Positions 3,497-59,663 are shown, numbered from the stretch's first letter. The stretch: 64,000 bases of DNA from a virus (IMGVR_UViG_3300015615_000881), one strand, 5' to 3'. Translations and numbers: made by a program. Notes: generated by a model not told the origin, from the sequence alone.

Positions 3497-4800
3497 TCCT
3501 TGATGCAGTCCGGGAGTTCGACGCGGCCGGTTCTCAATTGAGCATAGATTTGGTATGCCGCCTCTTTGTAGTTCACAGGGAAGCGGACCCGTGTATCCGT
3601 CGAATTTACAATCGCAATACCACTCACGGGCAGGCGAACCACCCTGACCGCAGCGGTCTGGAGGCGGTCGAGTATTTCAGCACAGGCCGTGTGGTAGGGA
3701 GCCGCGACCGGACAACCGGCCGCGGCCGCCTCTGTGATAGGCAAACCCCACCCCTCACCGAGCGTCGTCGTCAGGAAAAGATCGGCAGCGTTGTACAACT
3801 TGTTCAACTTCTCTTCACTCCACAGCGGCTGGTTCCCCATCCAATGCCCACCCGATTTCTCGTCGGTGCAGCGCCAGTCTTCGGTATATTTGAGACCCAT
3901 CTGACGGGCGAGAATCTCCAGATGATGCGAGTCGTCATGCACGTTCCAGGCGGTCATGTGCATCAACAATCTGACATTCCGAACGCCCGGAATCGGATTT
4001 GCGGCGTGGTGAAGCTTCAGTTCCTTGAACGTTTGGAACGTGCTGATGATCCCCTTGCGGGGTTGGTTGGCGCTGACGTTTACAATCAGAACATCATCCG
4101 ACTTCAGCCACCCGGGCAGTAACTCTTCCACCAACTTGAATCTTGGGTCCGGCAGCTTCCGGTACACACCGGTGTCAACGCCATGTGGCAGGACGCGGAT
4201 CTTCGATTCCCAGTCTGTGCCAGGATCCTGAATCGCCGAGACGGCCTGTTCCCTTCCCCATTCGCAGTAGGCAACCGGAACATCGACGTTCCGGATTATG
4301 TCAGCCCAGCCTGGTTCCAGCGGCGCATCGACCGGGAAGTAGAGGAAGCTGCGCGCCCCCAGTTTAGTGCATGCCTCACTCAATACCGCCGGGAATTTGC
4401 AGTTCGAAAGCCCGAACGTGTCCTGCATCAGCCAGACGTGTGTGTAGGGACGGCCAGCCCGATGCGCCATTTCCAACCGGCTGATGAATCCCTGCAGCTT
4501 GGGCTGCGTCGCCCAGTCCGCAAATCCGGCGGGATAGATTCGATAGGGAAGTTCGTGCGGCCAGCCGTTGAAGTTGATGCCCCAGACATCGATCTCACCG
4601 AAGGAGGCATGCCAGCGCTTGAGAAGGTTCTGGGCTACCCGGGCGAACCCGGTGTTCACCGTTGGCGAATCACATAAGCAGAGCAGCCGCATAAAAACAG
4701 GGAGGTCTGTGAGTTGGTCATCCGGATCGCATTGCGATCTCAGTACACACTTCACGCCTCCCGTGATGGTCAGCCTGAACGAACCGGCAGGCGTTGTCAA
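3439..4800 (-). CDS. GT4-family glycosyltransferase
   Basis: The C-terminal GT-B signature GEGWGLPITEAAAAGCPV (the E-x7-E motif of GT1/GT4 enzymes) is present. The true start is probably the internal Met MRLLCLC near position 4692, because the ORF-track start is a TTG codon. Confidence 0.7.
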   Translation of the reverse strand: MTTPAGSFRLTITGGVKCVLRSQCDPDDQLTDLPVFMRLLCLCDSPTVNTGFARVAQNLLKRWHASFGEIDVWGINFNGWPHELPYRIYPAGFADWATQPKLQGFISRLEMAHRAGRPYTHVWLMQDTFGLSNCKFPAVLSEACTKLGARSFLYFPVDAPLEPGWADIIRNVDVPVAYCEWGREQAVSAIQDPGTDWESKIRVLPHGVDTGVYRKLPDPRFKLVEELLPGWLKSDDVLIVNVSANQPRKGIISTFQTFKELKLHHAANPIPGVRNVRLLMHMTAWNVHDDSHHLEILARQMGLKYTEDWRCTDEKSGGHWMGNQPLWSEEKLNKLYNAADLFLTTTLGEGWGLPITEAAAAGCPVAAPYHTACAEILDRLQTAAVRVVRLPVSGIAIVNSTDTRVRFPVNYKEAAYQIYAQLRTGRVELPDCIKEWLSWDRIADEWMKLFKGE

Positions 4801-4814
4801 CAGATTCTGTTGAC
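4796..4814. promoter_or_regulatory. conserved palindromic element, perfect copy GTCAACAG-ATT-CTGTTGAC
   Basis: A 19-bp site with perfect 8-bp inverted arms. It lies at the tail/glycosyltransferase module boundary and ends in a TTGAC (-35-like) box on the coding strand. Confidence 0.5.
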
Positions 4815-7162
4815 TATTCCGAGTAGTCGAAGTCCGTCAGCAGTTCCGTGAAACTGAATGCCACCTGCCAGGCCGGAACCTTGACCGGCGTGGAGTCCGG
4901 GTTGTACGAGGAGTATCCGGCCCGGGCCACGCCCTCGTCCATCGGCACGAAGACGGGCGAGACGCTCAGCCTGGGTTGCTGGCGATAACGCACGGCCGGC
5001 GCGGCGGGCATTCCAATCGTGCCGTAGGGGTAATGGTATTGACGCCGTGCCCACTCCATCGCCGCAGTTTCACTGGCCGCCTTGACCCGGCCGCTGACTG
5101 TCCGGCGCCCGCCCTGGTTGCCGCACACCTGCACCAGGTCCCGGCCGAATGCCGTCGCGCGCAGGACCAGCCGGGCACCGCTGAACTCGATGTCCTCGGT
5201 CACCTCGCATTCCAGGATGGTATCCTCGTTGGCCATCCGGGTCTGGTAGGTATCCGCGAAATCCAGCTTGAGAAAATACTCACCGGACGAAGGCGCATCA
5301 TCGGCCGCGCTGGCCCTGACTCCGAATGACTTCTCCCGATCCTCCAAACGCTCGCTCTCGGTCAGGTTGCCCAGGCCTCCGCTCGCAATTTGGGTCAGCA
5401 CCCAGTCCGCATCGGCCCGGGAACTTGCCCAGATGCTGCCCTGCAGGCGCGTGATGCGCTGCCGGTTGAGATAATCGTTTCGGACCAGATGACTGTAGCG
5501 CAGTGCGACCTCGCCGCCGGAGGCCTTCTGCCGGTGGACGGAGAACTGGAAGTCGAGCCGCATCTCATGGCGGGCGTAGTTGATCCCGATGGACTCCCCG
5601 GAATTCACAACGTCAGCCCAGGTGCCGGCGTTGGGCGGGGTGCGCGTCGCACCGGTCGGAACTCCGGACGCCAGTCCGATCTGCTGCCGGCTTTCCGTGG
5701 TCCGCTCATTTCTGAACATGACGGTGCCGTAGCCAGACTTGAGCGTGTTGTAGTGCGTGCGGGCGGTCGCAAAGTTGGCCGCCACCACGTATCCACTGAC
5801 CGTCTCGGAGTTGAGACCAAACGTTTCCGCCGAGATGTCGCTCGTCACCTCCATGTACACCCGGGATCCCTTGAGTTGGTACTCGAAATTGAATTCGACC
5901 GGGCAGAATCGTTCGCTCGAGCTCGTGGCGTTGTCGCTGGATTGTTGATTGTCGTTGGCGGTAACGGTGCCCGTGATGAGCATCTGATGTTTGGCGGCCC
6001 CGAGGGACTTCGCCTTGGTGACGGCCGCCTGGTAGGCGGTTGCCCAGGTCGCCGCCTTTCCCAGAACCGTCCCTGAGTAGGTGCGACGGATGAATCCCGA
6101 CCGCACGTCCTCGGTGTCGCTCATGCGCAGGGTCGAGACCAGGGCGCCGGCGGCCTTGCTCAACAGATATTCGTCGTCGAACCGAAGCTCAATGAATGTG
6201 GCGCCGTCCGTATCCGCGTGGACTTCCTGATCCGTCTCGCTCGTCGTCATCGCGGACAGCGTGTCCGGGGCTCGGGAAGCCACCAAGGCCGCACGGATGG
6301 TGGCGAGCTTGGCCTTGGCGGCAGCCAGGCTCTCGGCGCCCACCCGCCCCGACAGCAGCACGGCGGTTGTGCCATCAGGATTCTGTGACCGGGTCGTGAT
6401 GGTGAACTCCGCCAGCGCATACCCGGCTTCATTCGGAAAGTGTGTGTAGGTGGCGGAGAGACTCCAATCGATGGCGTCGCTCGCGTCGTTGATGTCGCAC
6501 GAGAAATCCTCAACCCGGACCACCTTGTCGAAAGCGCCGTATTTCAACTGGCCGTCGGCTCCGTTCACCTGCTCGATCATCTCGTCCTTGGCCGCCTGCA
6601 ACACGGCGCGTCGGTCGGCCAGCGGCGCCTTCGGATTGGCAAGAAACTGGCCGGTCAATCCAATCCGGCCGGAGGCCCCCGACCGATGGCTGCGCAGGTT
6701 CGAGTATCGGCTGGCGGAGTAGGACTGGTTGGTGCGCGTGACATGCCCGAGCGTGACCTCATCGAGCTGGCCGGAACGCTTGAAGATGGCATCGATCCCG
6801 TTCGGATGCAGATCTTGCTCATAGTAGGCGAAGACAATCTCGATTGACTGCTGGTGAGATCCCCACTGGTTGGGTTCGTCGGGCAGGTTATGGGATTGAA
6901 CCGTTGCGGTCTGATCGAGGAAGACGTTTTCTGTGACCTCGTCCAGCCATTTCAACTGGCCGTGCTGGGTCTTGAGCGCCTCACGGACCACGTTGACCAG
7001 GTTGCGGTTGTCCTGGAACGAACGTTGGAATACGTCGATGCAAACGCGCAACAGGCAGCGCATGCGGTGCGGGGTCGAGTCCGGCTGGGATTCGAATTGC
7101 TGACCGCCAATTCTCAAAACGCCGAGCCCGTGAAAGGCGACGTCGTTGTAGAAGAGTTGCAT
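4814..7162 (-). CDS. large tail protein downstream of the tape measure gene (distal tail/hub-like, function unresolved)
   Basis: A 780-aa ORF immediately after the tape measure gene. It has no recognisable catalytic motif. The probable start is MQLFYND. Confidence 0.35.
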   Translation of the reverse strand: MQLFYNDVAFHGLGVLRIGGQQFESQPDSTPHRMRCLLRVCIDVFQRSFQDNRNLVNVVREALKTQHGQLKWLDEVTENVFLDQTATVQSHNLPDEPNQWGSHQQSIEIVFAYYEQDLHPNGIDAIFKRSGQLDEVTLGHVTRTNQSYSASRYSNLRSHRSGASGRIGLTGQFLANPKAPLADRRAVLQAAKDEMIEQVNGADGQLKYGAFDKVVRVEDFSCDINDASDAIDWSLSATYTHFPNEAGYALAEFTITTRSQNPDGTTAVLLSGRVGAESLAAAKAKLATIRAALVASRAPDTLSAMTTSETDQEVHADTDGATFIELRFDDEYLLSKAAGALVSTLRMSDTEDVRSGFIRRTYSGTVLGKAATWATAYQAAVTKAKSLGAAKHQMLITGTVTANDNQQSSDNATSSSERFCPVEFNFEYQLKGSRVYMEVTSDISAETFGLNSETVSGYVVAANFATARTHYNTLKSGYGTVMFRNERTTESRQQIGLASGVPTGATRTPPNAGTWADVVNSGESIGINYARHEMRLDFQFSVHRQKASGGEVALRYSHLVRNDYLNRQRITRLQGSIWASSRADADWVLTQIASGGLGNLTESERLEDREKSFGVRASAADDAPSSGEYFLKLDFADTYQTRMANEDTILECEVTEDIEFSGARLVLRATAFGRDLVQVCGNQGGRRTVSGRVKAASETAAMEWARRQYHYPYGTIGMPAAPAVRYRQQPRLSVSPVFVPMDEGVARAGYSSYNPDSTPVKVPAWQVAFSFTELLTDFDYSE

Positions 7163-7212
7163 CAAGGACCTCCGCGGACATTCGCCCACAAGCCGGGGTA
7201 AAAGTCAAACCC

Positions 7213-13265: not shown

Positions 13266-13756
13266 TCGGCCTCGTACAGGTTGGCGAAACGGCGGGCCCG
13301 GTCGAGAATGGGCGCAGGGGCGGGAATCGAACCCGCGACACACAGTTTATGAGGCTGCGGAACTACCACTGTTCTACCCTGCATCAGATACTTGGGAGCA
13401 TTCCACAGAACGTAGAGTTCCCGGGCGCACGGCGGCCGGCCGTGCCGCCTGCTGAATCCAGCGATGCGCTCCACCAGAATCGCCCGCGCCTCCGGCCATT
13501 CCGGCCGGCGCGACCGCGTCAACCTGGGGTGGATCTGGAACCGGCCACGTTCGCCGGCGGCACCGATGAGACGCGGGTTGTCGCCGGTCTCGATTTGAGC
13601 CAGGGCGTGACGCAAGGCGGACTCGAAAGGCAGGCGGCCACGGTGGGAGCAGACAACCCGAGGGTGACCCAAAAACATTCCCTCGCTACAAGGATGAGCC
13701 GCCAGTTGCGGCGCGAAGCCGCAGAGCAAAAGCATGAAAACGAGTGCCCAACGCAT
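13229..13756 (-). CDS. secreted SLT-domain lytic transglycosylase
   Basis: Signal peptide MRWALVFMLLLCGFAPQLAAHP. Family-1 SLT active-site motif QIETGDNPRLIGAAGERGRFQIHP (compare ESxFNPxAxSxxGAxGLMQI). The last ~50 codons run through the tRNA, so the true C-terminus is uncertain. Confidence 0.5.
   Translation of the reverse strand: MRWALVFMLLLCGFAPQLAAHPCSEGMFLGHPRVVCSHRGRLPFESALRHALAQIETGDNPRLIGAAGERGRFQIHPRLTRSRRPEWPEARAILVERIAGFSRRHGRPPCARELYVLWNAPKYLMQGRTVVVPQPHKLCVAGSIPAPAPILDRARRFANLYEAECSRISHRSSGG
13309..13383 (-). tRNA. tRNA with CAT anticodon (Met, fMet or Ile2-lysidine type)
   Basis: A 75-nt cloverleaf on the minus strand. The acceptor stem is TGCAGGG/CCCTGCG with a U1-G72 wobble. 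The D-arm is GAAC-AGTGGTA-GTTC. The anticodon loop is CTCATAA (CAT). The T-arm is GCGGG-TTCGATT-CCCGC. The discriminator is C and the CCA is encoded. The anticodon stem has one C-A mismatch. Confidence 0.65.
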
Positions 13757-13801
13757 TGGTGCGCAGAATCTGTTTATTCTGTGGACTTGTCAACCCGAAT
13801 G

Positions 13802-14578
13802 TCACAGCGCGAGGGGCTCCTCGAACCCCACCGCCGTGAGACCCTCCACGCCGAGGGTCGCCTTCAGAGTCCCGACCGAGAATTCAAACCGGGCGGGCGA
13901 GGCCTCCGGGGTTGCCTCGATCAGGGCGGGTGTGTAGATCCTCCCGCCGGTCATAACGCAGCCCAGGCGGAGGCTGCCACGCCAGAACTCCAGGCGGGGC
14001 GTAAACAGGCGGTCCACCTCGAGAAACTCATCAGCCGTCACCCCCTGGGATCGGATCGTGGCACAGGGCGCGCCGTGGATGGAGATGTTGATTCCGCTCG
14101 GAACCGGGAGAATTGCGCCACGGTTGTCCAGTGAAGCCACCGCGGTGAACACCCCGGAGACGTAGTTGTAGAGCCTGACGTCCTCGATCCCGTCAACCCA
14201 TCGAACCGTCAGAGGCAGGTCCGGCGCGAGACCCGTCACCAGGTTGGGATCAGCCGTCTCCAGAACGATGGCGGCATTCGTCGCCGCATCTGCCTCGACG
14301 CCGGCGAAAGCGCGCACCAGCCAGCGGATCTGGTGGCCGACCGGCACGGTGCGGTTGATCTGGATGGACTGCCGGATCTCGCCGGTGCCCGGTGAAATCT
14401 GAAACTCTTCACCCGTCAGGACCCCGTTGACCTCCAGCGCAATGAAAACGAATCCCGCCACGGGCCGGGTCAGCACGATCGAGGCCGACGTGATCGAGCG
14501 CGGCGCTGTCCAGTGGTAGTGACCCATGAAGTATTCACCCGTGACGAGCGCGGCCGTATGCTTGAAGATGGATTTCAC
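13802..14578 (-). CDS. structural protein carrying the repeated EVNGVLTG beta-domain (one copy)
   Basis: A probable GTG start at 14578 overlaps the upstream TGA (GTGA). It contains GEYFMGHYHW...IALEVNGVLTGEEFQISPG...GHQIRWLV. Confidence 0.4.
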   Translation of the reverse strand: MKSIFKHTAALVTGEYFMGHYHWTAPRSITSASIVLTRPVAGFVFIALEVNGVLTGEEFQISPGTGEIRQSIQINRTVPVGHQIRWLVRAFAGVEADAATNAAIVLETADPNLVTGLAPDLPLTVRWVDGIEDVRLYNYVSGVFTAVASLDNRGAILPVPSGINISIHGAPCATIRSQGVTADEFLEVDRLFTPRLEFWRGSLRLGCVMTGGRIYTPALIEATPEASPARFEFSVGTLKATLGVEGLTAVGFEEPLAL

Positions 14579-15771: not shown

Positions 15772-16680
15772 TTACCGGGCGATGACGGTGAGATTGAGAC
15801 TGACTTCACTGATCGAGTTTTCCGGGGTGACCGGGGCGGCAGTGCAACGCCAGCGGAGGCTGTCGCCCGCGGCCAGGTTCTTCTGATAGGTCGCCTCGGC
15901 GTGGACGGCGCTCGCGGCAATGGTGATGGTATCCTCGATCGCCAGGTTTCCATTGACCTCGGGCACAATCGTGACGGGGCCGGTGCCGGCGGCGCAGTTG
16001 AGCACGGCCTTGACGTACTGCACTGGCCGGGTCGCCTTGTATTCGCCGAGCAGGTAAGCCCCGGAGAGCAGTGCCCCGACGTGGGTGAACAGAATGTTTT
16101 GGTCCATGTCGCCTCCATTGGATGAACTACTGGCGCCGCCTTCGGATACCGTGAGTGTTTGCCAAGAACCGTCCACCTTGACCTCCGTCATCAGGGCCGG
16201 CAGGCACAGACCGTGCAGCCCCTCAAACCAGCCGGTGAAGTGTTGCCAGCCGCTGAACATGGCCTCTCCGTTCTCGAGGCGGTGAATCACGTCCTCCAGA
16301 TGATTCATGAAGTCGCGATAGGACCCGAAGGTCTCGCTCATCGCGCGCGTCTTGTAACCCTGGAACGAGGGGTTGGGCGCGATGAACATCACGGCGACTC
16401 TGTAAACCAGAAGAGCGAAGGCGTTGGGATCCGTCAGGTCGGGAGTGATGTTCAGGCGGTTGGGGGTCAGGGTGTAACCCTTGGCGAAGTTCATCCGCAC
16501 GGCCGTCCGCACGGCGCCTTCAATGGCGCTGTTGGCGTACAGGGGAATCTCCGGGTCGCGATCGCCGAGCACGGCGCGAATCGGTTCCTGCAGTTCAGTG
16601 ATCGGCGTCATGGCGCATTCCTTAGCTTCAACAGAAAAGGCGGACGCACTCGCATGCGTCCGCCCCCTCAATACCCGCAC
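15772..16680 (-). CDS. structural protein with a C-terminal EVNGVLTG-type beta-domain
   Basis: GEYKATRPVQYVKAVLNCAAGTGPVTIVPEVNGNLAIEDTITIAA...DSLRWRCTAAPV. It is coupled to the upstream gene. Confidence 0.4.
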   Translation of the reverse strand: MRVLRGRTHASASAFSVEAKECAMTPITELQEPIRAVLGDRDPEIPLYANSAIEGAVRTAVRMNFAKGYTLTPNRLNITPDLTDPNAFALLVYRVAVMFIAPNPSFQGYKTRAMSETFGSYRDFMNHLEDVIHRLENGEAMFSGWQHFTGWFEGLHGLCLPALMTEVKVDGSWQTLTVSEGGASSSSNGGDMDQNILFTHVGALLSGAYLLGEYKATRPVQYVKAVLNCAAGTGPVTIVPEVNGNLAIEDTITIAASAVHAEATYQKNLAAGDSLRWRCTAAPVTPENSISEVSLNLTVIAR

Positions 16681-17578: not shown

Positions 17579-17601
17579 GGTCAATTGATTCGGTGGACTA
17601 C
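17579..17601. promoter_or_regulatory. conserved element copy (GTAGTCCACCGAATCAATTGACC on the coding strand) plus downstream hairpin and TTGACA
   Basis: It lies between the capsid gene and the next structural gene. A GATCCGG...CCGGATC hairpin and an AAGGAGA ribosome-binding site follow. Confidence 0.45.
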
Positions 17602-20158: not shown

Positions 20159-21036
20159 GAACCATATCGCGAAAGTGAAGTCAACTCTTTTTTTGACAGA
20201 TTAGACAGATTCTGTAGAACGGCCTCGATTTGTTCGATCACAGCCGGGTTGATCTCTCCTTCCGCCTCCAGGCTGGCCAGCATCTGCTCGATGCGCGCCG
20301 TCGGTTCGGCGCCGCGCTCCACCATCGCAAATCCGTTGTAGTGATTGAACCCGTTGACGCCGCCCATGACATAGACCACGTCCCGGTTCTGCCACCGGCC
20401 GACATAACCGCCGTCGGCACGGCGTTGCGTCATGCGCCCCTTCTTGAAGTCCCGGGTCGCGAGTAGTTCGGAAGCCGCCGCGGAGAGCGGGATGTAATCC
20501 CAGCCCGGGCAGAGGTTTCCCGGAGTCGCCTGCACCGCGAATCCACTCGCATCGGTCTGGTATTTGATCTCCATCGAGACCGCGTACGGACGGCGGCCGG
20601 CCTGGTGTTTGCCGATGATGCGATCGGCGCCGTCGGCCATCTTGAACAGACTCGCCACCGCGCGAATGCCGGGCGCTTCGGCCACACTGGCCGGCACGCT
20701 CCAGCCGGTGATCGGCGCCTTGGGAAATTCGACAGCCACCACGCTGCCCAGGATCCGGTCCTTGTAAATCGTCTCCGGATCGTACACCCGCATCAGGTGC
20801 CCGTAGTTGACGACCTGGTGCAACAGGGTGTCGTAGGAGTTCGCGACCGTTTGCGGGTGAACGCAGTCGCCGTAAAAGGTGACGACGGGAAAGCTGTGAC
20901 TCAGCGAGCAATCCAGGTAGGCCTTGCTCTGGTCCGGCGTGAATTTCTGACCGCCGATGGTGATGGCCTGCTCGCAGATGGCGATGCTGGCCTCGCCAAT
21001 CAACAAGCCACCCGCGTCTGTTTTTGCGTCGCTCAT
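20155..21036 (-). CDS. hypothetical head morphogenesis protein (possible prohead protease or minor capsid protein)
   Basis: A 293-aa ORF coupled to the scaffold gene. It has no clear catalytic motif. Confidence 0.25.
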   Translation of the reverse strand: MSDAKTDAGGLLIGEASIAICEQAITIGGQKFTPDQSKAYLDCSLSHSFPVVTFYGDCVHPQTVANSYDTLLHQVVNYGHLMRVYDPETIYKDRILGSVVAVEFPKAPITGWSVPASVAEAPGIRAVASLFKMADGADRIIGKHQAGRRPYAVSMEIKYQTDASGFAVQATPGNLCPGWDYIPLSAAASELLATRDFKKGRMTQRRADGGYVGRWQNRDVVYVMGGVNGFNHYNGFAMVERGAEPTARIEQMLASLEAEGEINPAVIEQIEAVLQNLSNLSKKELTSLSRYGS

Positions 21037-26381: not shown

Positions 26382-26393
26382 TGCCTCACTTTC

Positions 26394-26428
26394 GGTTGAC
26401 TCTGTCGATTCTGTTGACCAAGTCAACG
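26394..26428. promoter_or_regulatory. composite copy of conserved element (GTTGACTCTGTCGATTCTGTTGAC-CAA-GTCAAC)
   Basis: It lies at the 3' boundary of the secreted-protein operon and contains a GTTGAC-CAA-GTCAAC palindrome. Confidence 0.45.
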
Positions 26429-28933: not shown

Positions 28934-30624
28934 TGTTTGATGCGCTGGCGCCTTTCGGTCGGCGCGGCGTCGTTGTCGTTGATGTTTACCTGGGCGGAGG
29001 TTGGGCTTGCCGGCGTATAGGATCCGGCGGCGATGTTGAGTATGATCGTTTCAGTTCCCTCCACCGCCGCATCGTCCACGGCGGTGATGGGAATCGTGAC
29101 GCTGGACTGGCCATTGGGAATCACTACCGAGGTGCCGATGGTTCCGTAGTCGCCTGTCTCCGTCGCGCTGCTGCTGCCGTCGATGGTGAAGTTGACGGTC
29201 AAGCCTCCGGACGTGGAACCGGTTCGCGTCACCTGAAAGCCGCCGGCGGACCCACCCTCGGTCGCATTGCCGAGGGAAATGATGCTGACAGTCGGGGTCG
29301 TTCCACCCCCGGTAAATTCAAACCTCCCGACATCTCTCACCCCCTCAGCAATGGCGTTGCCGTCACCGTCCAGAATGGCAAGCTGAGGAGCCGTACCGGC
29401 GTTTCTCAGTGCGGACGTTGAGGTCAACCGGAAATTGTTCCAGGCAACAAAATCCGCGTTGTACTGATCTCCAAAAAGGGAGTTGGGCGTCGTGAATGAA
29501 GAACCGATACGGTTTTCCAAATTGGCCCTCAAGTTGTCTGACGAGACGCAATTCGACGCCACGCAAGCAGGTACTCCGGAGCCGATAAAAAAACCGTTTG
29601 CCCAGTTGCTGATGGCGGCGCAATTGACCCACCTGGCGCCCGTCGAATTGGCGCTGTCGATGGCGAAACCGCCGCCGACACCAGTCGCTTGGTTGCCATT
29701 CCGCACCGCCGTGCAATTCTCCCAAAGGGTATCAATGGCTCCATAGGCGGCATAGAATCCGATAACGACGTTTGTCGCCTCGCAGTTGATGAACTTGTTG
29801 CCGATGCCCTGATACGCCCCGAATCCGCGAGGCATCAGAGCCCCTGTGCTGAACCCGCGGCAGTTGATCAGGATGTTCGAATTGACCGAACCTGAACCCC
29901 CCGTGGCGTTCACATGAAAAGCGTGGGGGGTGCCACCACCGGACTGATCAGCGCCAACGCAGTTGGTATAGTAGCCAAGGCTGGACCCGATATACCACGC
30001 GTGCTGATCGTTATCTCCCAGATAATTCAACCAGCCATTATTGGTCGCGATGCAGTCGTAGAAAGAGACTCCATTCATGTTCTGGAGCACCCCGTGACGA
30101 CCGGCGGAATCTGTGAACTTGCAGCCTTTAAAAACGTTGGACGAGCTGGCAGTCCCAACATTATAGCAAGTCAATACCGGGGAATCTGAAATACTGTTGG
30201 TCAGAGACCACCAGATGTTCTCGAACCAGACAAAGGACTTGTCCACTGGATCGAAGTTGTAGTTGCCGAAAAAGAGCGCGGGAGAATTCCACGTGTTGTC
30301 CGGAGCCACCTTAACGTTGTGACCGGGATAGGCCATGATCCGCGTGTAGTTGCCACCGGTCCCGTTCTTGATCTTCATCTTGGAGACGTTTCCACCGGTC
30401 GATGAGTCGGTGCCCATCCCCTCGTTGTACACACCCTCCAGAATCTGTAGAGTGTCGTTGGCCTGCATGTTGTTGATGCCGTACACGATGTTCCGCCACG
30501 GAGCGTTGGTGGAAGTGCCGGCGTTGGCGTTGTTGCCGTAGAGGGCGACGTAGTTCGTCTGCGCGGCGCTAAGCCACAGCGGCGTCCACAGAATCAATTG
30601 GCTGATGAGCAGGAGTGTCTTCAT
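28930..30624 (-). CDS. secreted right-handed beta-helix (pectate-lyase-like) protein with C-terminal Calx-beta domain
   Basis: Signal peptide MKTLLLISQLILWTPLWLSAAQT. Repeated NC...N beta-helix rungs (INCRGF, INCEATN, ENCTAVRN, VNCAAISN, SNCVSSDN). C-terminal Calx-beta signature DGSSSATETGDYGTIGTSVVIPNGQSSVTIPITAVDDAAVEGTETIILNI. Confidence 0.55.
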   Translation of the reverse strand: MKTLLLISQLILWTPLWLSAAQTNYVALYGNNANAGTSTNAPWRNIVYGINNMQANDTLQILEGVYNEGMGTDSSTGGNVSKMKIKNGTGGNYTRIMAYPGHNVKVAPDNTWNSPALFFGNYNFDPVDKSFVWFENIWWSLTNSISDSPVLTCYNVGTASSSNVFKGCKFTDSAGRHGVLQNMNGVSFYDCIATNNGWLNYLGDNDQHAWYIGSSLGYYTNCVGADQSGGGTPHAFHVNATGGSGSVNSNILINCRGFSTGALMPRGFGAYQGIGNKFINCEATNVVIGFYAAYGAIDTLWENCTAVRNGNQATGVGGGFAIDSANSTGARWVNCAAISNWANGFFIGSGVPACVASNCVSSDNLRANLENRIGSSFTTPNSLFGDQYNADFVAWNNFRLTSTSALRNAGTAPQLAILDGDGNAIAEGVRDVGRFEFTGGGTTPTVSIISLGNATEGGSAGGFQVTRTGSTSGGLTVNFTIDGSSSATETGDYGTIGTSVVIPNGQSSVTIPITAVDDAAVEGTETIILNIAAGSYTPASPTSAQVNINDNDAAPTERRQRIKQ

Positions 30625-33404: not shown

Positions 33405-33425
33405 TGTCAATGGATTCTGTTGACT
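33405..33425. promoter_or_regulatory. conserved element copy (GAGTCAACAGAATCCATTGACA on the coding strand) with -35-like TTGACA
   Basis: It lies 56-76 nt upstream of the ATG at 33349. An inverted repeat CAGAATCC/GGATTCTG (33388-33395 and 33411-33418) flanks it. Confidence 0.5.
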
Positions 33426-36407: not shown

Positions 36408-36432
36408 GACTCTATAGAGTCAACAGAATTGC
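36408..36432. promoter_or_regulatory. conserved element copy in opposite orientation plus GACTCTATAGAGTC palindrome
   Basis: It lies between genes 36482-37294 and 35079-36404. The sequence is AGACTCTATAGAGTCAACAGAATTGC. Confidence 0.45.
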
Positions 36433-36481
36433 ATTACGGGAAGCCCGCCTGGTGAACCGGGCGGGCGGCGGGCGGGGCAGC

Positions 36482-39663: not shown

Positions 39664-39917
39664 TTCCTTGTTCTACTGATTCGGTGGACTACATCAACAA
39701 ACGTCTTCCGATCAATCTCGATCGCACCCAACGCCACCGCCTTCTTTCGCTTGGTTTTGCAGATGTCGAAGTGCGGATACTTCGCGTTCTGGAACCACCG
39801 ACGACTCACGCCAATGGCATCCGCCATCGCGAACAATTCCTCTGTGGTGTCCACGATCATGTGACACATGAGCATGCCGCGGAACGGCCAGATCGGTGCG
39901 TCAACGTAGCAAGCCAT
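39660..39917 (-). CDS. DUF4031-family protein
   Basis: MACYVDAPIWPFRGMLMCHMIVDTTEELFAMADAIGVSRRWFQNAKYPHFDI matches the DUF4031 pattern (xVYVDd...W.HL.AD...EL..fA..lG..r.Wf..HYDi). Confidence 0.45.
   Translation of the reverse strand: MACYVDAPIWPFRGMLMCHMIVDTTEELFAMADAIGVSRRWFQNAKYPHFDICKTKRKKAVALGAIEIDRKTFVDVVHRISRTRK
39676..39692. promoter_or_regulatory. conserved element copy (GTAGTCCACCGAATCAG, 16/16 identical to the copy at 17585-17600)
   Basis: It lies 17 nt upstream of the ATG at 39663 and overlaps the 3' end of the DUF4031 gene. Confidence 0.45.
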
Positions 39918-40320
39918 TGTCCGTCTTCCATTCGTCCAGGTTTATCGGCCGCACCAGCCAGCCGTATTCGCGCGTCAGGTTGGTCAACGGAATTGATTCA
40001 AGGACGTTTGTGAACGAGACGGCTTTCCAGTGTGTGACCGAAACCAGGTTGGAAGACACCAACCCGATCTCGCGATTGTCCAACCAACGGTGAATCGCCT
40101 TTTGCAACGGCGATTCCGGATACCCTGGGTGTATCCGACACGGCTCGTTCGTGTTTGCGTGGTAGAGGTCCAGGTAAGGTTTTCCAGCCTGCACCCAGTG
40201 TCCAATATCGGCCTTGTGCCATGTCTCGGCGCGGACCCATTGCGGCGGGTCCACGCGGAACGGGATCGGTTCAGGGTTCGCCGCGAGAATGGCGGCGGCG
40301 ATTGCATAGGGTAGGATCAT
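39901..40320 (-). CDS. hypothetical protein with shared C-terminal SNLVxVxxWK...TNVLESxxxTNLTR domain
   Basis: The C-terminus LVSSNLVSVTHWKAVSFTNVLESIPLTNLTREYGW is paralogous to the C-termini of 55312-55896 and 54559-55308. Confidence 0.35.
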   Translation of the reverse strand: MILPYAIAAAILAANPEPIPFRVDPPQWVRAETWHKADIGHWVQAGKPYLDLYHANTNEPCRIHPGYPESPLQKAIHRWLDNREIGLVSSNLVSVTHWKAVSFTNVLESIPLTNLTREYGWLVRPINLDEWKTDNGLLR

Positions 40321-43304: not shown

Positions 43305-44450
43305 CTACTGCGCGGGCAGGTGCAACGGGTCGTATTCGTTCTGGAGCGGGTCATCGCTTTCCAGGTCGGGCAGGCGTTCCTGTTCTTCATCGCTGACGTG
43401 CTGGGCCGCGGCCGTCCAGGCTGCGTCGAGCTTCTTCAATTGCCCTGGCGTGAAGTGGGACTTCCACTTCGGATCCCACAAGCCGGCCTTCGCGGCATTG
43501 AGATAGACAACCAGGCCGGCCCGATACCGGGGCTCGGGCGCCTGCACGCTCCGACGGCATTCCACCTGGATCTCCACGGCGGTGAAGATCCCATCCACGC
43601 GGGCGCGATCGCCTTTCGCCATGTAATCCCGGTGCCCCTCGATCAACTCCGCCACCACACCGACAAAGGCCATCTTCCCACTGATGGCACCAGCCCACGG
43701 GGCGATGACATCGATCTGGGTCAGTTGTTCCCGGTACCGGTCCTGCATCTCCTGCTGCAGTCGCACGACTTCACGATGCTCCTTGCTGCCGAACTCGTGC
43801 CGGGCGGATTTCACTTCCGCCCGGCGGATCTGCATTTCATTGAGCAGGGTTTGGCGCGCCAGCTCCGCGGCCATCTGGTGGTCGAGTAGTTTCGTCCACC
43901 GCTCCACTCGCATTGAAAACCAGAATCGCTCCGCTTGGGTCTCCGCCGCATCGCGGCCAGGCACGGCAAAGAGACTGTCCGGGAACCCGTATTTCTCGAG
44001 GATGCTCTCCTTGAACTCAATGGCCTGTTGCGGGGATGCCGGCGGCGGCGCTGGATCCAGCGTTGGCGCAACACCGAGCACAATCCCACGCACAGCATCA
44101 ATCTCCTGGGAGAGTTGCGCCCTGGAAACACCGAGAGCGGCGGCGAGCTCTTCCCGCCCCCAAACGCGCAGGTCGTCGGGATCCGAGTCCGCCCGGGGAA
44201 TCATTGGCGCGATGCCGAACAGGCGGCGCACGATCAACCAGGACCTGGCGTGCTGGCTGACGCGGGACACGAATTGAGCCAGGTCGGTGACCTGCGAGAA
44301 TTCCGACTCGAACAGGTCGTGCCGGGAGATGCGCCACGGCTCGTTGGCCGGGCCGGAAAACTCTCGGATCGGACCGGCTTGCACCTGGGCAGGCGGAGGA
44401 GGAGGCGAGCCGAGCTCTGGTTGCATTGAGTCTTTGGATTTCCGGGGCAT
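43305..44450 (-). CDS. HTH-containing protein (possible small terminase or regulator)
   Basis: The segment EELAAALGVSRAQLSQEIDAVRGI is HTH-like. The N-terminus is Pro-rich. 381 aa. Confidence 0.3.
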   Translation of the reverse strand: MPRKSKDSMQPELGSPPPPPAQVQAGPIREFSGPANEPWRISRHDLFESEFSQVTDLAQFVSRVSQHARSWLIVRRLFGIAPMIPRADSDPDDLRVWGREELAAALGVSRAQLSQEIDAVRGIVLGVAPTLDPAPPPASPQQAIEFKESILEKYGFPDSLFAVPGRDAAETQAERFWFSMRVERWTKLLDHQMAAELARQTLLNEMQIRRAEVKSARHEFGSKEHREVVRLQQEMQDRYREQLTQIDVIAPWAGAISGKMAFVGVVAELIEGHRDYMAKGDRARVDGIFTAVEIQVECRRSVQAPEPRYRAGLVVYLNAAKAGLWDPKWKSHFTPGQLKKLDAAWTAAAQHVSDEEQERLPDLESDDPLQNEYDPLHLPAQ

Positions 44451-47704: not shown

Positions 47705-47712
47705 GGTGTTTC

Positions 47713-47736
47713 GTTTCTGTTGACTCTGTTGACTCG
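47713..47736. promoter_or_regulatory. conserved element copy (GAGTCAACAGAGTCAACAGAAAC on the coding strand)
   Basis: It lies 9 nt upstream of the ATG at 47704, between the methyltransferase and secreted-protein genes. Confidence 0.45.
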
Positions 47737-47747: not shown

Positions 47748-49145
47748 TCATTCGGAGAGCACGGCCGTCACTAGGGACCTGGCGGTGTTGCATGGCACAG
47801 CGTTGCCAATCTGGCGGATGATGTCCTTTTTCGTCCCGGTGAAGTTGTAGTCGGAAGGGAATCCCTGGGCGGCGGCAAGTTCGTGAGGTTGGAGCATTCG
47901 ATACAGAATCTCCAGACGGTATTGCTTGCCATCGATTTTCATCTCGGGCTGGACCAACCCAAAGCGCGGGCGGGTAGTGACCGTTCCAAGTGGTTCGCGG
48001 ACGGAACGAGTAGTGCCGGTGCCGTAATATTCGACGAGGAAAGGCTCGACCAATCCAGCATGAACGCCGCCGGCGGAAATGGTCGGCACCGGTTCGTCGA
48101 TCGATTTTGCGGAAGCCTCAAGCTGACTGTGCTCGGTGCCCCGCAATTCAACCAGGTATGGTTGGATCAAAGCCATCGAAGCGCTTCCCACGACGGTTTG
48201 CAAAGGCTTGGCGACTGAACGAGCCGGAGAGGCATTCTGTTGGCCGATGATGAAAGGCTCGATCAGTGCCATCTCCCCTCGATTGGCGCAGGTGATTGTC
48301 GGGACTGGTCTATTGATGGAATGGACACGGCGATCAGTGCCGGATGAGTGAGTGACGTGGATAATGAAGGGTTCAAGCACCGCACCACCGTATTTCCTCA
48401 ATCCGGCGGCGATTCGGCGAAGGGTGTTTTCTTTGAGCGGACGTTCCCGGCTGAAAATCGAGGACCCCTTGATTCTCCAGTCAATGATCTCCCGAGCGGA
48501 TCTCCAGCGCTGGCTCGACTCCAATTGACGCTCGGCATCCGGTTTGAAATGGGTCGGTGACGGCCAGGCAAGTTTCCGGCGGCCGCGGACTGCCTGAACA
48601 AACAAGCGCTGCCGCGTCGTTGGATCACCGTAGTCAGCGGCGCAGAGGATTCGCCATTCGACCTTGTAACCGAGGGACTCCAGCATGCCGAGCCAGGCTT
48701 TGAAAGTCGCACCCTTCTTGGATTTGAGCGGGCGCCCACGGCGGCCCAGCGGGCCCCACTCCATGAACTCCTTCACGTTCTCGACGAGGATGACGTCCGG
48801 CCGAAGGGCCTCCGCCCAACGCGTGACGCAGTGCCCGGACGCCCGGCTTTGATCGTTCATGGGACGCCCACCGCGCGCGCGGGAATGGTGGGTGCACTCC
48901 GGAGACGCCCAAAGGATGTCCAACTTCCCGTCCGGATACAGGTGGCGCGGATTGATTGAGTCAACCGACGCGCAGACGTGCCGGGCACTGGGGTGGTTCG
49001 ATGTATGCGATTGGACGGCGACCGGCCAATGATTGACAGCGGTGAGCCGGGGCTCATACCCAAGCGACTCGGCGGCCTGCATTGCGCCGGTGCTCGTTCC
49101 GCCGGCGCCACAGAACAGGTCCGCGATCTCCAGGACTTTGGTCAT
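47748..49145 (-). CDS. DNA (cytosine-5)-methyltransferase with expanded, internally repeated target-recognition region
   Basis: Motif I DLFCGAGG. Motif IV WASPEC. Motif VI ILVENV. Motif VIII TRQRLFVQAV. Motif X QIGNAVP. Between motifs VIII and IX there are four tandem PxPTIT...(E/Q)PF(I/L) segments. Confidence 0.8.
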   Translation of the reverse strand: MTKVLEIADLFCGAGGTSTGAMQAAESLGYEPRLTAVNHWPVAVQSHTSNHPSARHVCASVDSINPRHLYPDGKLDILWASPECTHHSRARGGRPMNDQSRASGHCVTRWAEALRPDVILVENVKEFMEWGPLGRRGRPLKSKKGATFKAWLGMLESLGYKVEWRILCAADYGDPTTRQRLFVQAVRGRRKLAWPSPTHFKPDAERQLESSQRWRSAREIIDWRIKGSSIFSRERPLKENTLRRIAAGLRKYGGAVLEPFIIHVTHSSGTDRRVHSINRPVPTITCANRGEMALIEPFIIGQQNASPARSVAKPLQTVVGSASMALIQPYLVELRGTEHSQLEASAKSIDEPVPTISAGGVHAGLVEPFLVEYYGTGTTRSVREPLGTVTTRPRFGLVQPEMKIDGKQYRLEILYRMLQPHELAAAQGFPSDYNFTGTKKDIIRQIGNAVPCNTARSLVTAVLSE

Positions 49146-49339: not shown

Positions 49340-49626
49340 TGTTCCACGTGTAACAGTTTGCTTGCTCGTTGCAAGTAAATTCTACCGAATAAACTGTTTC
49401 GACTGACTGCCAGCCACCGATTGAGGGCGGCGCGCCGTGCCGGGCAACCGCAATTCCCGAGGAACTTCTCCAGCCATTCCGGGCCGGCAGCGATGATGGC
49501 GCGCTTGATGGGGTCCGACTTGAGCGCGACCAGGTCGCCGAGGCCGAACACGTCCTCCTTCTGCACCTTGAACCCACCTGGCGGCGCTACCTCGTAGCCG
49601 AGAGCGGTCTTTCGAATGAGAGCCAT
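49336..49626 (-). CDS. hypothetical small protein
   Basis: ATGA-coupled. 96 aa. Confidence 0.3.
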   Translation of the reverse strand: MALIRKTALGYEVAPPGGFKVQKEDVFGLGDLVALKSDPIKRAIIAAGPEWLEKFLGNCGCPARRAALNRWLAVSRNSLFGRIYLQRASKLLHVEQ

Positions 49627-53910: not shown

Positions 53911-54299
53911 TGTCCGTTGTCGTCAACGTATATGTAGTCAACCCACCACCAGTTGCTACCCAGGACTGTGGCGGTCTCGGTGCCGTCGTCCCACACGATT
54001 TTCCCAGGCTTGCCGATTGGTGGGGCGTCGGAGACTTCCAGGCGGGCTGGAAAGTGAGTTTCAGTCCACAATCGTCGGTGGCAGAACACACAGACATGAT
54101 GGTTCTGCCAATCGGCTTCACCTGGTGGTTCTTTTACGGACACGACGCGGGAGAACTTCTTTGTCGCATTGATGCATCTCTCGGCTGGGCAATTGATCTT
54201 GAGACATTCGGGATCGGAGAAGTATCCGTCATACCGAATCGTGTGCCACGTTTGGCAGGGCAGCGCGCAGAGAAGGAGTAGTGAGAGTGGAATTGTCAT
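53889..54299 (-). CDS. secreted Cys-rich protein
   Basis: Signal peptide MTIPLSLLLLCALPCQTW and multiple Cys residues. Confidence 0.35.
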   Translation of the reverse strand: MTIPLSLLLLCALPCQTWHTIRYDGYFSDPECLKINCPAERCINATKKFSRVVSVKEPPGEADWQNHHVCVFCHRRLWTETHFPARLEVSDAPPIGKPGKIVWDDGTETATVLGSNWWWVDYIYVDDNGQWHGRKP

Positions 54300-54568
54300 A
54301 GTGGGAGACCGTCGTTTACGTGGCAGCGGCGTTCGATGAATTTGATGTACTCCGGGTTGAGTTCGATGAGGCAGGCATGGCGCGAGAGGCCGAGGGCGAC
54401 TTCACCGACGGTGCCGGATCCGGCGAAGGGATCGAGGCCGATCTGACCGGGGACACCGTAGTCACGGAGCCCGTAGTAAGGGGGTGACGTGACGCAGCAG
54501 TGGACGGAGTTATCCGGCAACTGGCGGAGGCGCTCGAGGCAATCGCCCTGGATGATTCTTACCGCCAT
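54296..54568 (-). pseudogene. internally deleted beta-class N6-adenine/N4-cytosine DNA methyltransferase remnant
   Basis: Motif IV (CCVTSPPYYG) and motif I (LDPFAGSGT) are only about 20 aa apart in a 90-aa ORF. Intact PF01555 enzymes have roughly 130-200 aa between them. Confidence 0.45.
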
Positions 54569-55311: not shown

Positions 55312-55896
55312 TTACTCATACCGGCGGACTACCTCCTCGCGGAATGTTCTAGTCAGATTGGTCACGATAACCGATTCAAGGACGTTGGTGTGCTTGACGC
55401 CTTTCCACTCGATGACGGCGACGAGGTTGGATTGGACGGTGCCGCGCTCCAGGGGCGGCGGCGTTGAAACAACGTTGCCGTTGATCATGACTTTGGTGGG
55501 AACCTGATCCACCCAATTCGTATGCAACTGCCATTGTGGCGTGGTGCACAGTAGGTCCGAGCCGTTGAATGATACGCTTACTATTGTTCTCGGCGGCGGC
55601 GCATTCGTCATCACCGGCGACGATTGGACTGTCCACGTGTCGGTTTCGATGAGTGCCGACGGCTTCACGCCCAGAAAGTCCGCGGCCTCCTCTCGTGTCA
55701 TGTGGGAAAGTGGCGTGTAGTGGTGAAACTTGACATACCCGTCATCCATGAAACGAAGCCACACGGACCCTTGGTTGGTGCCGGATCGCCACAAGACTTG
55801 ACCGGCGGCAATTTGTTCTGCCTTGTGGTCAGAGTAGCACCCGGACAACAGAAGCGTGGAGGTGAGGATTAGGGCGAAGGTGATGATGTTTTTCAT
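55312..55896 (-). CDS. lipoprotein with shared C-terminal SNLVAVIEWKGV...TNVLESVIVTNLTR domain
   Basis: Lipobox MKNIITFALILTSTLLLSGC. The C-terminal paralogous domain is present. Confidence 0.4.
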   Translation of the reverse strand: MKNIITFALILTSTLLLSGCYSDHKAEQIAAGQVLWRSGTNQGSVWLRFMDDGYVKFHHYTPLSHMTREEAADFLGVKPSALIETDTWTVQSSPVMTNAPPPRTIVSVSFNGSDLLCTTPQWQLHTNWVDQVPTKVMINGNVVSTPPPLERGTVQSNLVAVIEWKGVKHTNVLESVIVTNLTRTFREEVVRRYE

Positions 55897-55900
55897 ACGA

Positions 55901-56251
55901 TTAACGGTTCAGGATGAGTTCGCAGTAGATGACGAGGCCGCGGCGGAGGAATACCTTTTGGAAGTGTTCTTCGAAATCGAGCAAAGGATCGAGGCGGCTG
56001 GGTTCGGGCTGCCAGGCGCGTTGGAGTTCCCACAGGTATTCGGATAGGGAAGTTGTGCCGTGCGCCTTCCAGAAGGCCATGGCTTTGGTGAGGTCGGTGT
56101 TGAGATCGCTCCAATCGATCCAGTTGTTGAGAGCATCCCGGAGGGCGGGACCACGCCAGCGCTGACGGCAACGGACTTTGTATTCGTCGTGCGTTGGCAC
56201 CTTCAGACCCGCTGAGGCGGGCACGTCCAGCAATTGGATCTGTTCGGTCAT
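55901..56251 (-). CDS. hypothetical protein
   Basis: The probable start is MTEQIQLLD. The ATG lies 5 nt after the 3' CCA of the tRNA-like element. Confidence 0.3.
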   Translation of the reverse strand: MTEQIQLLDVPASAGLKVPTHDEYKVRCRQRWRGPALRDALNNWIDWSDLNTDLTKAMAFWKAHGTTSLSEYLWELQRAWQPEPSRLDPLLDFEEHFQKVFLRRGLVIYCELILNR

Positions 56252-56255
56252 GTTG

Positions 56256-56367
56256 TGGTGGAGGAGCCCGGATTCGAACCGTGCGGTGGCGGGTCGCACA
56301 TCTTACCCATAGCCAGCCGCTCTTAGTGTGCTCTATAGATCTCGTTCCCAACGAGCAAAGCTCCCCC
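56256..56367 (-). ncRNA. 112-nt tRNA-like element (perfect T-arm GG-TTCGAAT-CC, acceptor GGGGGAG/CTCCTCC, encoded ACCA 3' end)
   Basis: The element exactly fills an intergenic gap. The D-arm-like CTCG-TTGGGAA-CGAG is present. No clean anticodon arm could be drawn, as roughly 30 extra nucleotides include a CTCTATAGAG palindrome. Confidence 0.3.
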
Positions 56368-56368
56368 A

Positions 56369-58972: not shown

Positions 58973-59196
58973 CAGTGTCTCCCGAACATATCGGTGAAAA
59001 TGTCGGCGCCGCGTTGGCCGCCGAGTTTCCGGAGGTCCTCGGCGAATTTGTGACCGGCAGTGTGGCCGGCGGAGTGGCCAGCATCGTAGGCACGCTCGAT
59101 TTGTTGTACCAAGCTGGCGGGTGCGAGGGTGATCCGGATGGCTTCAAACAACCGTGGGTTGTTGGCTTTGATGCTGGCGATGTAATCGTCCCGGGT
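58972..59196 (-). CDS. hypothetical small protein (GTG start overlapping upstream TGA)
   Basis: A GTGA junction at 59196. The ORF-track N-terminus is low-complexity and was ignored. Confidence 0.2.
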   Translation of the reverse strand, partial: TRDDYIASIKANNPRLFEAIRITLAPASLVQQIERAYDAGHSAGHTAGHKFAEDLRKLGGQRGADIFTDMFGRH

Positions 59197-59402
59197 CACA
59201 GGAGGTGTTCGTTGATGACCTTGTGCTCGCGGATCTCGATGGCTGGGCGGGCGCGAAAATCGAAAACCTTGCCGGTGGGGGTGAGGAGGCAGAGGCGATG
59301 GGTGCGGCGATCTTCGCCCCAGCGCCAGTTCTTGTGGTTGGTGAGAAACGCGAGGTGTTCGAGTCTCACACTGGCCCACGTGAATTTTTTCCCTCTGGCC
59401 AT
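59196..59402 (-). CDS. hypothetical small basic protein
   Basis: A 68-aa ORF at the start of an operon, about 260 nt downstream of the primase gene. Confidence 0.3.
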   Translation of the reverse strand: MARGKKFTWASVRLEHLAFLTNHKNWRWGEDRRTHRLCLLTPTGKVFDFRARPAIEIREHKVINEHLL

Positions 59403-59632
59403 TGTTTATGTCGATTCTATTGTCTTGGATGCTCCATCTGGTTACTGGCCGTTGGCTTCAGTGTGCTTTAGCATGCCGACGCATAGAGGACACCTGGCAG
59501 TAACGCCTCGAAGGCCTCCTAAATGTCTCTCGCCGTAAGTTGTAACTTGCGACCCAGACATCGCCGCGTTGAATCGACTCATTCATCAACGGGCACCACC
59601 TGACAACGACGCTTTTTTGAATTTCCATACGC

Positions 59633-59663
59633 TGTTGACCGATTCGACAGATTCTATTGATTT
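59633..59663. promoter_or_regulatory. degenerate copy of conserved element (ATAGAATCTGTCGAATCGGTCAACAG)
   Basis: It lies immediately downstream of the primase-helicase stop and at the head of the next operon. Confidence 0.35.

Follow-up and report, generated by a model that had tools for sequence, protein, structure and literature searches.

Cluster A mycobacteriophages carry stoperators, sites for repressors of the L5 gp71 type that occur in many copies genome-wide, in promoters and in short intergenic spaces, and at which the bound repressor blocks both initiation and elongation (PMC9283540). We describe a dispersed palindromic motif in a 64,000-nt stretch of viral DNA (IMGVR_UViG_3300015615_000881; hereafter the window, bases 40857-104856 of a 163,965-bp Joint Genome Institute metagenome contig) that shares several traits with these sites. 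Like stoperators, the motif recurs at junctions over replication, accessory and structural regions, with 14 loci, nine of them in gaps and five at most 100 nt from a junction. Stoperators, however, are asymmetric 13-bp sites that are bound by a monomer and are strictly orientation-dependent, whereas the copies here are 19-bp dyads, with tandem or everted halves and mixed orientation; moreover, we recognised no repressor gene, and no neighbouring operator at an early lytic promoter, in the window and the region to its left.

Other described systems resemble the motif in part. The 17-bp palindrome TGTTCGGNNNCCGAACA of Cluster O mycobacteriophages, present in tens of copies per genome and of unknown function, is likewise a dispersed, short-armed dyad with an A/T-rich spacer of 1-3 nt. 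This likeness is one of layout only (many places, mostly gene boundaries), the sequence, phage and host phylum being unrelated, and we claim no homology; the arms of the Cluster O palindrome are invariant, whereas the halves described here are degenerate in sequence and are also found alone, in tandem and everted. The logic also resembles that of KorA and KorB of IncP-1 plasmids, which have palindromic operators at many operon heads, in a position that varies relative to the promoter, such that one small dimeric regulator controls the whole plasmid backbone; the differences are that this is a plasmid system, that its operators are 12-13 bp long and that its regulators are known. Lastly, the start-associated sequences of Cluster K mycobacteriophages are short conserved motifs a few bases upstream of some start codons, asymmetric, inclusive of the ribosome-binding site and at a fixed distance to the start. 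By contrast, the motif described here is symmetric, lacks a Shine-Dalgarno sequence, and has its centre anywhere from 113 nt (250 nt at one locus) upstream to 31 nt downstream of a start codon.

We favour, with moderate confidence, the explanation that a phage-encoded protein, dimeric and sequence-specific in its DNA binding, uses the motif as its operator, with copies dispersed at the junctions of transcription or translation units. Such an arrangement is of a known kind and not a new principle; what is new is the phage group and the host phylum, which lack regulatory data. Gene regulation in Verrucomicrobiota phages is, indeed, almost entirely unexplored. A predicted 19-bp operator with 14 mapped copies offers a bait for its regulator and an aid to recognising transcription units and related prophages, and it permits a test of whether stoperator-type genome-wide silencing evolved independently, with a dimeric reader, outside Actinobacteria.

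Architecture, enrichment and location of the motif

The palindrome has the form GTCAACAGA-W-TCTGTTGAC. A preliminary description of the window had reported a perfect copy at 4796-4814 with 8-nt arms and a 3-nt spacer, and this copy is present as described, although it can equally be read as 9-nt halves round one base; its plus strand is GTCAACAGATTCTGTTGAC, the sequence in the title of that description being the minus strand. A near-full second copy lies at 33406-33424. The repeat unit is a 9-nt half-site, (A)GTCMACMGA, for which the counts over 28 halves are G18, T26, C24, A15/T7/C4, A22, C16/T11, A14/C7/T5, G25 and A28, and the central base that follows it is A or T. Two inverted halves make up the 19-bp dyad, and additional halves stand either in direct tandem at 9-nt spacing (47715, 26391, 20192, 13768, 36410) or everted with a 3-nt spacer (26414, GTTGAC-caa-GTCAAC; 59632). 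Two features that had previously been treated as separate belong to this architecture: GAATC-NN-TTGAC is simply the right half of the dyad, the supposed fused -35 box TTGAC being the outer arm of the half-site itself, and the supposed second palindrome, CTCTATAGAG, is at 36410 a degenerate tandem half-site of the same motif, beside GTCAACAGA. The copy of CTCTATAGAG claimed at 56.3 kb amounts to only CTCTATAGAT and scores as nothing.

Expected counts were taken from dinucleotide-preserving shuffles of the window, using simple patterns that are independent of any trained model. The preliminary description had made the importance of the motif depend on enrichment over such shuffles, and the enrichment is there: CTGTTGAC was observed 12 times against 1.85 expected (shuffle maximum 5), GATTCTGTTGAC with at most two mismatches 25 times against 4.70 (shuffle maximum 10), GAATCNNTTGAC three times against 0.23, and the 19-mer with at most three mismatches at two loci against 0.00. 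ATTCTGT is the top over-represented 7-mer of the window relative to a maximal-order Markov expectation. Fourteen loci, all between 1182 and 59661, emerged from a search with a symmetric position weight matrix (PWM) that took in the window together with 9.8 kb to its left and 5 kb to its right. All eight positions listed in the preliminary description hold real copies, and the matrix adds 1182, 13759/13768, 20192/20201, 30584, 39983 and 59406. Seventeen matches reached at least 14 bits, compared with 0.37 in shuffles, a comparison that is circular in that the matrix was trained on the sites counted. Outside the 14 loci are a weak site at 16627, included below, and a probable chance match at 48096. 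Gene coordinates are those of the calls attached to the contig, and coding is entirely on the minus strand across the window. The sites are as follows, with PWM scores in bits where given and protein lengths in amino acids (aa).

1182..1200: dyad GTCTGTAGATTCGGTTGAC, in the 3' end of gene 1175-1951, ending 3 nt ahead of the ATG of the epimerase gene 159-1178; 23.6.
4796..4814: perfect dyad GTCAACAGATTCTGTTGAC, overlapping the TAG stop of a 782-aa gene, in the gap before a glycosyltransferase gene; 28.8.
13759..13786 (locus 13759/13768): a dyad and one tandem half (three half-sites in all), intergenic, after gene 13802-14578, ending 2 nt before the ATG of an uncalled open reading frame (ORF) with a signal-peptide-like start, upstream of tRNA-Met; TTGACA lies directly 5' on the sense strand.
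16627..16645: site TTCAACAGAAAAGGCGGAC, weak or degenerate, intergenic between the core genes of 281 and 279 aa; 12.2.
17580..17598: dyad GTCAATTGATTCGGTGGAC, running over the TAG that ends the capsid-like 385-aa gene; 23.5.
20192..20219 (locus 20192/20201): tandem half plus dyad (TTTGACAGA TTAGACAGA T TCTGTAGAA), within the 293-aa core gene at its 3' end, 52 nt ahead of the start of the 258-aa core gene.
26391..26427 (locus 26391/26400): tandem array of three half-sites, with a further half everted (GTTGAC caa GTCAAC), filling the 51-nt gap after the 712-aa gene.
30584..30602: dyad GTCCACAGAATCAATTGGC, within the part of the 564-aa gene that encodes the signal peptide, its centre 31 nt past the ATG, and identical at 17/19 positions to the reverse complement of the 17580 site; 20.3.
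33406..33424: dyad GTCAATGGATTCTGTTGAC, ahead of the 667-aa gene in a gap of 79 nt.
36410..36437 (locus 36410/36419): array of three half-sites (CTCTATAGA GTCAACAGA A TTGCATTAC), intergenic, ahead of the 431-aa core gene; the sense strand has TTGACT.
39671..39689: dyad TTCTACTGATTCGGTGGAC, in the 3' end of the DUF4031 gene, with 7 nt between its end and the ATG of the 270-aa core gene; 21.7.
39983..40001: site GTCAACGGAATTGATTCAA, in gene 39901-40320, 75 nt upstream of the start of the DUF4031 gene; 16.7.
47706..47733 (locus 47706/47715): two abutting direct half-sites (TCTGTTGAC twice) and a degenerate inverted one, in a gap of 43 nt behind the C5 methylase gene, ending 10 nt before the next ATG.
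59406..59424: site TTATGTCGATTCTATTGTC, ending 3 nt before the ATG of a 68-aa gene; 16.6.
59632..59661 (locus 59634/59643): everted half (CTGTTGAC cga) and dyad TTCGACAGATTCTATTGAT, directly next to the TAA that ends the 1418-aa primase-like gene.

The 16-nt identity reported earlier between two copies is that of the 17580 and 39671 sites, which have the 16-mer GTAGTCCACCGAATCA in common.

The sites lie at gene junctions. Nine loci occupy nine of the ~21 gaps of at least 25 nt, and these often reach the preceding gene's stop codon (TAG-TCAACAG, TAG-TCCACCG, TAA-ATCAATAG). The earlier statement that each copy is intergenic holds for these nine; the other five (1182, 20201, 30584, 39671 and 39983) are inside called genes near a junction, all within ~100 nt of a start codon, and those at 1182 and 39671 are just ahead of an overlapping ATGA start. 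All 14 centres fall within -31 to +113 nt of a start codon, a zone that makes up 18% of the window; this count uses, for 13768, the uncalled ORF starting at 13756, and includes 59643 only by way of its neighbour 59406, its own centre lying 250 nt ahead of the next start. At five sites, only 2-10 nt separate the end of the motif from the following ATG, and four of the five genes concerned lack a Shine-Dalgarno sequence. The better half is upstream at eight loci and downstream at three, with both halves good at three, a distribution that is not significant.

The motif is confined to the phage part of the contig. The best PWM scores in the 9.8-kb left extension and the 5-kb host flank are 10.1 and 10.7, respectively, compared with 14.7-28.8 at the sites, so that neither flank holds a site. 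When the motif was considered as a host repeat of the repetitive extragenic palindromic (REP) or miniature inverted-repeat transposable element (MITE) type, no match of at least 11 bits was found in the 5-kb host flank, which is a small sample, and ~30 kb of related verrucomicrobial host-type loci, also a small sample, gave no match of at least 12 bits. This bears on the possibility that a host factor or epigenetic switch is at work, with the central GANTC (CcrM/HinfI-type) or the DnaA-box-like halves read by host methylation or by DnaA- or GcrA-like proteins, which we consider highly improbable. GANTC is indeed central in 11 of the 14 core dyads and in 15 of the 20 overlapping 19-mer registers listed, and a probable remnant of a beta-class N6/N4 methyltransferase is encoded at 54296-54568. 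However, GANTC is not depleted in the window (308 vs 344 +/- 18), the methyltransferase is a 90-aa remnant, and the host belongs to Verrucomicrobiota and is no alphaproteobacterium. The likeness to the DnaA box (GTCCACA) is contradicted by the halves, only 4/28 of which have CCAC; in addition, motif variants follow the phage lineage, and the host-type DNA sampled holds no copies. Judged against the LexA and FNR/CRP consensus sequences, the arm order and spacing are wrong for a site of either kind, and we rejected both.

Hairpin pairing and promoter-like hexamers

To distinguish a hairpin from a protein site, we made an ungapped alignment of 20 copies, 14 from the window and 6 from relatives, and counted nine nested pairs. 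Pairing was found in 62.8% of cells, compared with 64.8% when partners were shuffled among copies (438 of 500 shuffles equalled or exceeded the observed value), and the covariation score was 0.036, compared with 0.076 in shuffles. The symmetry thus arises because the two halves each follow the consensus while drifting independently, and no stem is maintained. This lack of covariation speaks for a dimeric or oligomeric protein that recognises double-stranded DNA. It weighs against an N4-type DNA hairpin promoter, an RNase or other processing site and an RNA hairpin, since stem pairing and compensatory changes are not kept across copies.

For the same reason, it is very unlikely that the motif acts at the RNA level, with the transcribed palindrome serving as a hairpin, or as a single-stranded processing site, stabiliser or translational operator near starts. 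The perfect copy would give an 8-bp stem; copies abut or overlap the starts of Shine-Dalgarno-less genes at 1182, 13759, 47715 and 59406 in the window and at the capsid gene of two relatives (L096 and L004); and the palindromes of a more distant relative, L093, include one stem-preserving change (GCAGATTGGAAATCTGC vs GCAGGTTGGAAACCTGC). Nonetheless, pairing across the 20 copies is no better than in shuffles, degenerate copies (17580, 1182) retain 5/9 pairs with internal mismatches, the direct tandem halves at 47715 cannot pair, and orientation on the mRNA strand is mixed.

The preliminary description had proposed either an operator for a dimeric regulator or a phage-specific promoter class. 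The dyad, its independent halves and the tandem and everted halves fit the first; a uniform promoter class does not fit, with a hexamer pair at only 3/14 loci. Between 1 and 60 kb there are 5 sigma-70-like consensus pairs, compared with ~12.5 in shuffles; the sense strand carries four of them, of which three touch a site. At 33406, the motif arm is the -35 (TTGACA-16-CATCAT, 10/12, sense strand); at 13768, the motif gives the -10 (GTGACA-18-CAGAAT); and at 59643, the dyad centre is the -10 (TTGCCA-17-TAGAAT, 10/12, sense strand). A strict sigma-70 rule finds pairs at 3/14 loci and a relaxed one at 6/14, against ~1.7 expected, with none at 8/14, and the site centre is at -39, -17/-19, -8/-10 or +1 relative to the predicted start. 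We found no fixed sigma-70 geometry relative to the motif across the 14 loci of the window. Given this variable hexamer position, the motif is not a fixed promoter part in this genome; it overlaps promoter-like hexamers variably or sits at gene starts. Nor do the sites correspond to intrinsic terminators, judged by a G+C-rich stem-loop ahead of a T run: only 36421-36408 resembles one on the sense strand, and 26412 and 59632 do so on the antisense strand only. Intrinsic-terminator-like sites are scarcer in positions 1-60000 of the window (37) than in shuffles (~54).

These hexamers raise the alternative that each copy is a promoter or class-II-type activator site, at which host RNA polymerase, alone or with a phage sigma-like or adaptor protein, would start transcription, with TTGAC as the -35 and the dyad centred near -41. 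We regard this as credible but unlikely. It would account for the pair at 33406, for the three of four sense-strand matches in 60 kb that touch a site while consensus promoters are otherwise fewer than in shuffles, and for the TTGAC upstream of the 431-aa gene, which is kept in four lineages. It would also account for the sites of one relative, L002 (TTGACT-18-TCTACT, TTGACT-18-CATACT and TTGACA-17-TTAAAT), which lie on the sense strand straight after stop codons. However, the eight loci without a sense-strand pair lack one even under the relaxed rule, and the motif is the -35 at one site and the -10 at two. Furthermore, the well-conserved half points away from the downstream gene at eight loci, five sites end within the 2-10 nt of the next ATG given above, and another is inside a gene, 31 nt past its start. 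No phage RNA polymerase or sigma factor was found, and the DxDGD motif of phage RNA polymerases is in no coding-strand frame.

If the motif is instead an operator, as we propose, a monomer would read the 9-nt half-site, with conserved contacts at T2, C3, A5, G8 and A9; two monomers would bind the 19-bp dyad, and abutting or everted halves would allow cooperative extension. A dimer bound over -35/-10-like hexamers would occlude RNA polymerase, and one bound at a gene start or in a short gap would form a roadblock to read-through of the one-directional gene train. The outcome would be genome-wide silencing or timing, with inserted accessory blocks insulated from core genes. We infer that the action is mainly negative because the sites either overlap the hexamers in varying positions or coincide with the start of the following gene; repression fits better than activation, since the geometry varies and activation needs fixed spacing.

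Relatives, inserted blocks and the search for a reader

The capsid-like protein has only 24 relatives among 5.8 billion proteins. Among the loci that encode them, identities and sites (PWM scores in brackets) are as follows.

L002, capsid identity 58%: sites at 4969 (23.2), 6707 (21.8) and 8643 (18.3), each at the 3' end of a gene on the sense strand, its dyad overlapping or reaching the stop, with a plausible -10 at 17-18 nt.
L003, capsid identity 58%: sites at 1012 and 4738, in junction gaps; the scores in this relative are 16.7 and 16.0.
L004, L007 and L096, capsid identity 61%: one site each, over the start of the capsid gene (16.0).
L095, capsid identity 60%: no site in 7 kb.

Homologous junctions, identified from tblastn synteny, carry sites in more than one phage: before the 431-aa core gene (36419 in the window, 4969 in L002), between the 293- and 258-aa core genes (20201 in the window, 8643 in L002, 1012 in L003), and between the 281- and 279-aa genes (the weak 16627 in the window, 4738 in L003). 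More distant relatives, reached via the 373-aa protein of the window (41-45% identity), are without this motif and have their own palindromes at comparable places: TTACAGACGTCTGTA is in three gaps of L092, one copy abutting an ATG, and GCAGATTGGAAATCTGC is in L093. These palindromes and the motif of the window have common arms, CAGA..TCTG, with spacers of 1, 2 or 7 nt in different relatives. Presence of the motif at homologous positions in related phages, on which the preliminary description had made the importance of the motif depend, is therefore true of some relatives only. The specificity of the motif thus tracks phage lineage, which points to a phage-encoded reader.

Compared with L002, the phage in the window has accessory gene blocks inserted between core genes, and the inserted genes fall into widespread PHROG families, while no core gene matches a PHROG. 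Site-flanked blocks that are present in the window and absent from L002 comprise genes of 226, 93, 139 and 85 aa, genes of 175, 60, 281 and 270 aa, and a 15-kb block between the 431- and 293-aa genes. The sites at 39671, 36419, 33406 and 26400 are at block-to-core junctions, in agreement with the earlier statement that the motif lies at module boundaries, which here separate conserved core genes from lineage-specific inserted blocks. Flanking of this kind, and the different family membership of inserted and core genes, would also be expected if the motif were a scar of recombination or mobility, a short linker or MITE/REP-like repeat where gene blocks exchange or insert, with no regulatory role. 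We think this improbable. Sites also lie between adjacent core genes (17580, 20201) and at core junctions in relatives without insertions (4969 and 8643 in L002, 1012 in L003); there are neither flanking direct repeats nor a longer conserved element around the 19-mer, and the 5-kb host flank holds no copies.

Another explanation, which we consider rather unlikely, is that the motif and its lineage-specific counterparts make up a "junction code" of this group of Verrucomicrobiota phages, in which a fast-evolving phage factor acts at each gene-block junction and the sites form a new promoter or insulator class and not a plain repressor operator. Such a factor would replace promoter or Shine-Dalgarno signals, re-initiating transcription or enabling translation of Shine-Dalgarno-less genes, and the sites would also mark the insertion points of accessory blocks.

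Several observations weigh against an operator for a phage-encoded dimeric protein. Searches of ~45 window ORFs against Pfam and PHROGs revealed no DNA-binding family. No immunity-type divergent region carries the motif, since the only divergent pair seen, to the left of the window, scores 10.1. Site number is low in some relatives with ~60% capsid identity, with none in L095 and one in L096 in 6-7 kb. Lastly, all three sites of L002 look like complete sense-strand promoters, which would fit an activator or promoter too.

The candidate reader named in the preliminary description, the helix-turn-helix (HTH) protein encoded at 43305-44450, is the 373-aa protein, a conserved core protein with 46 homologues. 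Its HTH_3/YdaS signal in Pfam is sub-threshold (E 0.035-0.05). In Foldseek, its AlphaFold2 model (mean predicted local distance difference test, pLDDT, 85) matches sigma region 4 with a template modelling (TM) score of 0.67 over 71 columns (E 3, not significant) and gives local KorA-like matches, none of them significant (E 3-6 for sigma region 4 and KorA). We found no sequence match in the PDB for the 1255-, 867- or 373-aa proteins. Between the window, L002, L092 and L093, the helix-turn-helix hardly changes although their palindromes differ, which makes the 373-aa protein a poor candidate for the reader. One might speculate that it reads a different, parS-like palindrome instead, TGTTCCACGTG(G/T)AACA. 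This 16-bp palindrome lies shortly downstream of the 1255-aa core gene (49340-49355 in the window) and also at 9092-9107 in L092, 8837-8852 in L093 and 953-968 in L094, the homologous place being kept in two distant relatives (L092 and L093); it could be a partition, packaging or regulatory site.

The intergenic regions of the relatives have further features. Tandem heptamer repeats occur in nearly every 5' untranslated gap, often in place of a Shine-Dalgarno sequence: (xxxCCAA)n in L093 (4135-4203, 8736-8921, 12770-12921, 17018-17072, 18603-18668), (GGTTGAT)n/(ATCAACC)n in L003 (3671-3753, 5758-5839) and (TCAGGGT)x12 in L096 (2724-2869). Upstream of the homologue of the 431-aa gene in L092 (14413-14638) and L093 (13813-14055), a TTGACG box is followed by a strong intrinsic terminator before the start, a layout that recalls the PR'-tR' late-gene arrangement of phage lambda and that would need antitermination.

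The element, its host and neighbouring features

The carrier of the 14 loci is an uncharacterised, prophage-like insert in a Verrucomicrobiota chromosome. This follows from the identity of the purA product (82% to a metagenome-assembled genome of Verrucomicrobiia, 68-72% to Chthoniobacterales) and from the host genes at the right end, where purA, uppS, cdsA, dxr and rseP lie immediately past the window (L009 1-5000; contig 104.9-109.8 kb; a second contig, L010, is identical to L009 and hence uninformative on polymorphism). The first phage gene, encoding the 1418-aa primase-like protein, is divergent from purA and bears an FtsK-gamma domain, and neither an integrase nor a tRNA attachment site was seen at this right-hand junction between element and host. 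Other recognisable genes of the window encode a tape-measure protein, the capsid-like 385-aa protein, the C5 methylase and tRNA-Met; the majority of the other window proteins are without a family match. Megablast against deposited phages revealed no similar phage, IMG/VR contained no relatives of the 1255-aa or capsid-like proteins and no exact copy of the 19-mer, and the capsid-like gene was in no genome of GTDB.

After the tail genes, a long same-strand gene cluster of sugar or lipopolysaccharide type extends over 159-4692 of the window and 11013-15993 of L008, with an epimerase, several glycosyl- or heptosyltransferases, a cytidylyltransferase and a methyltransferase; next to it, on the opposite strand, is a block of SNF2 helicase genes. 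In the gap after the 867-aa gene, a tRNA-like RNA is predicted on the minus strand at 56252-56368. It has an acceptor stem of 7 bp, D and T arms (the latter GGUUCGAAUCC) and a 3' CCA, with ~50 nt of extra sequence in place of the anticodon arm. It matches the Rfam tRNA-Sec model at 17.6 bits (gathering score 47), ARAGORN is silent, and its minimum free energy is -45.7 kcal/mol (z -2.5). In the 90-aa ORF at 54296-54568, motif IV (SPPY) of a beta-class N6/N4 DNA methyltransferase is joined straight to motif I (DPFAGSGT), suggesting that the ORF is probably a methyltransferase remnant from which the middle of the enzyme is missing. Lastly, a 536-nt hole in the gene calls, at 13266-13801, holds tRNA-Met (13309-13383) and the uncalled ORF starting at 13756, which has a signal-peptide/lipobox-like N-terminus, MRWALVFMLLLCGF.

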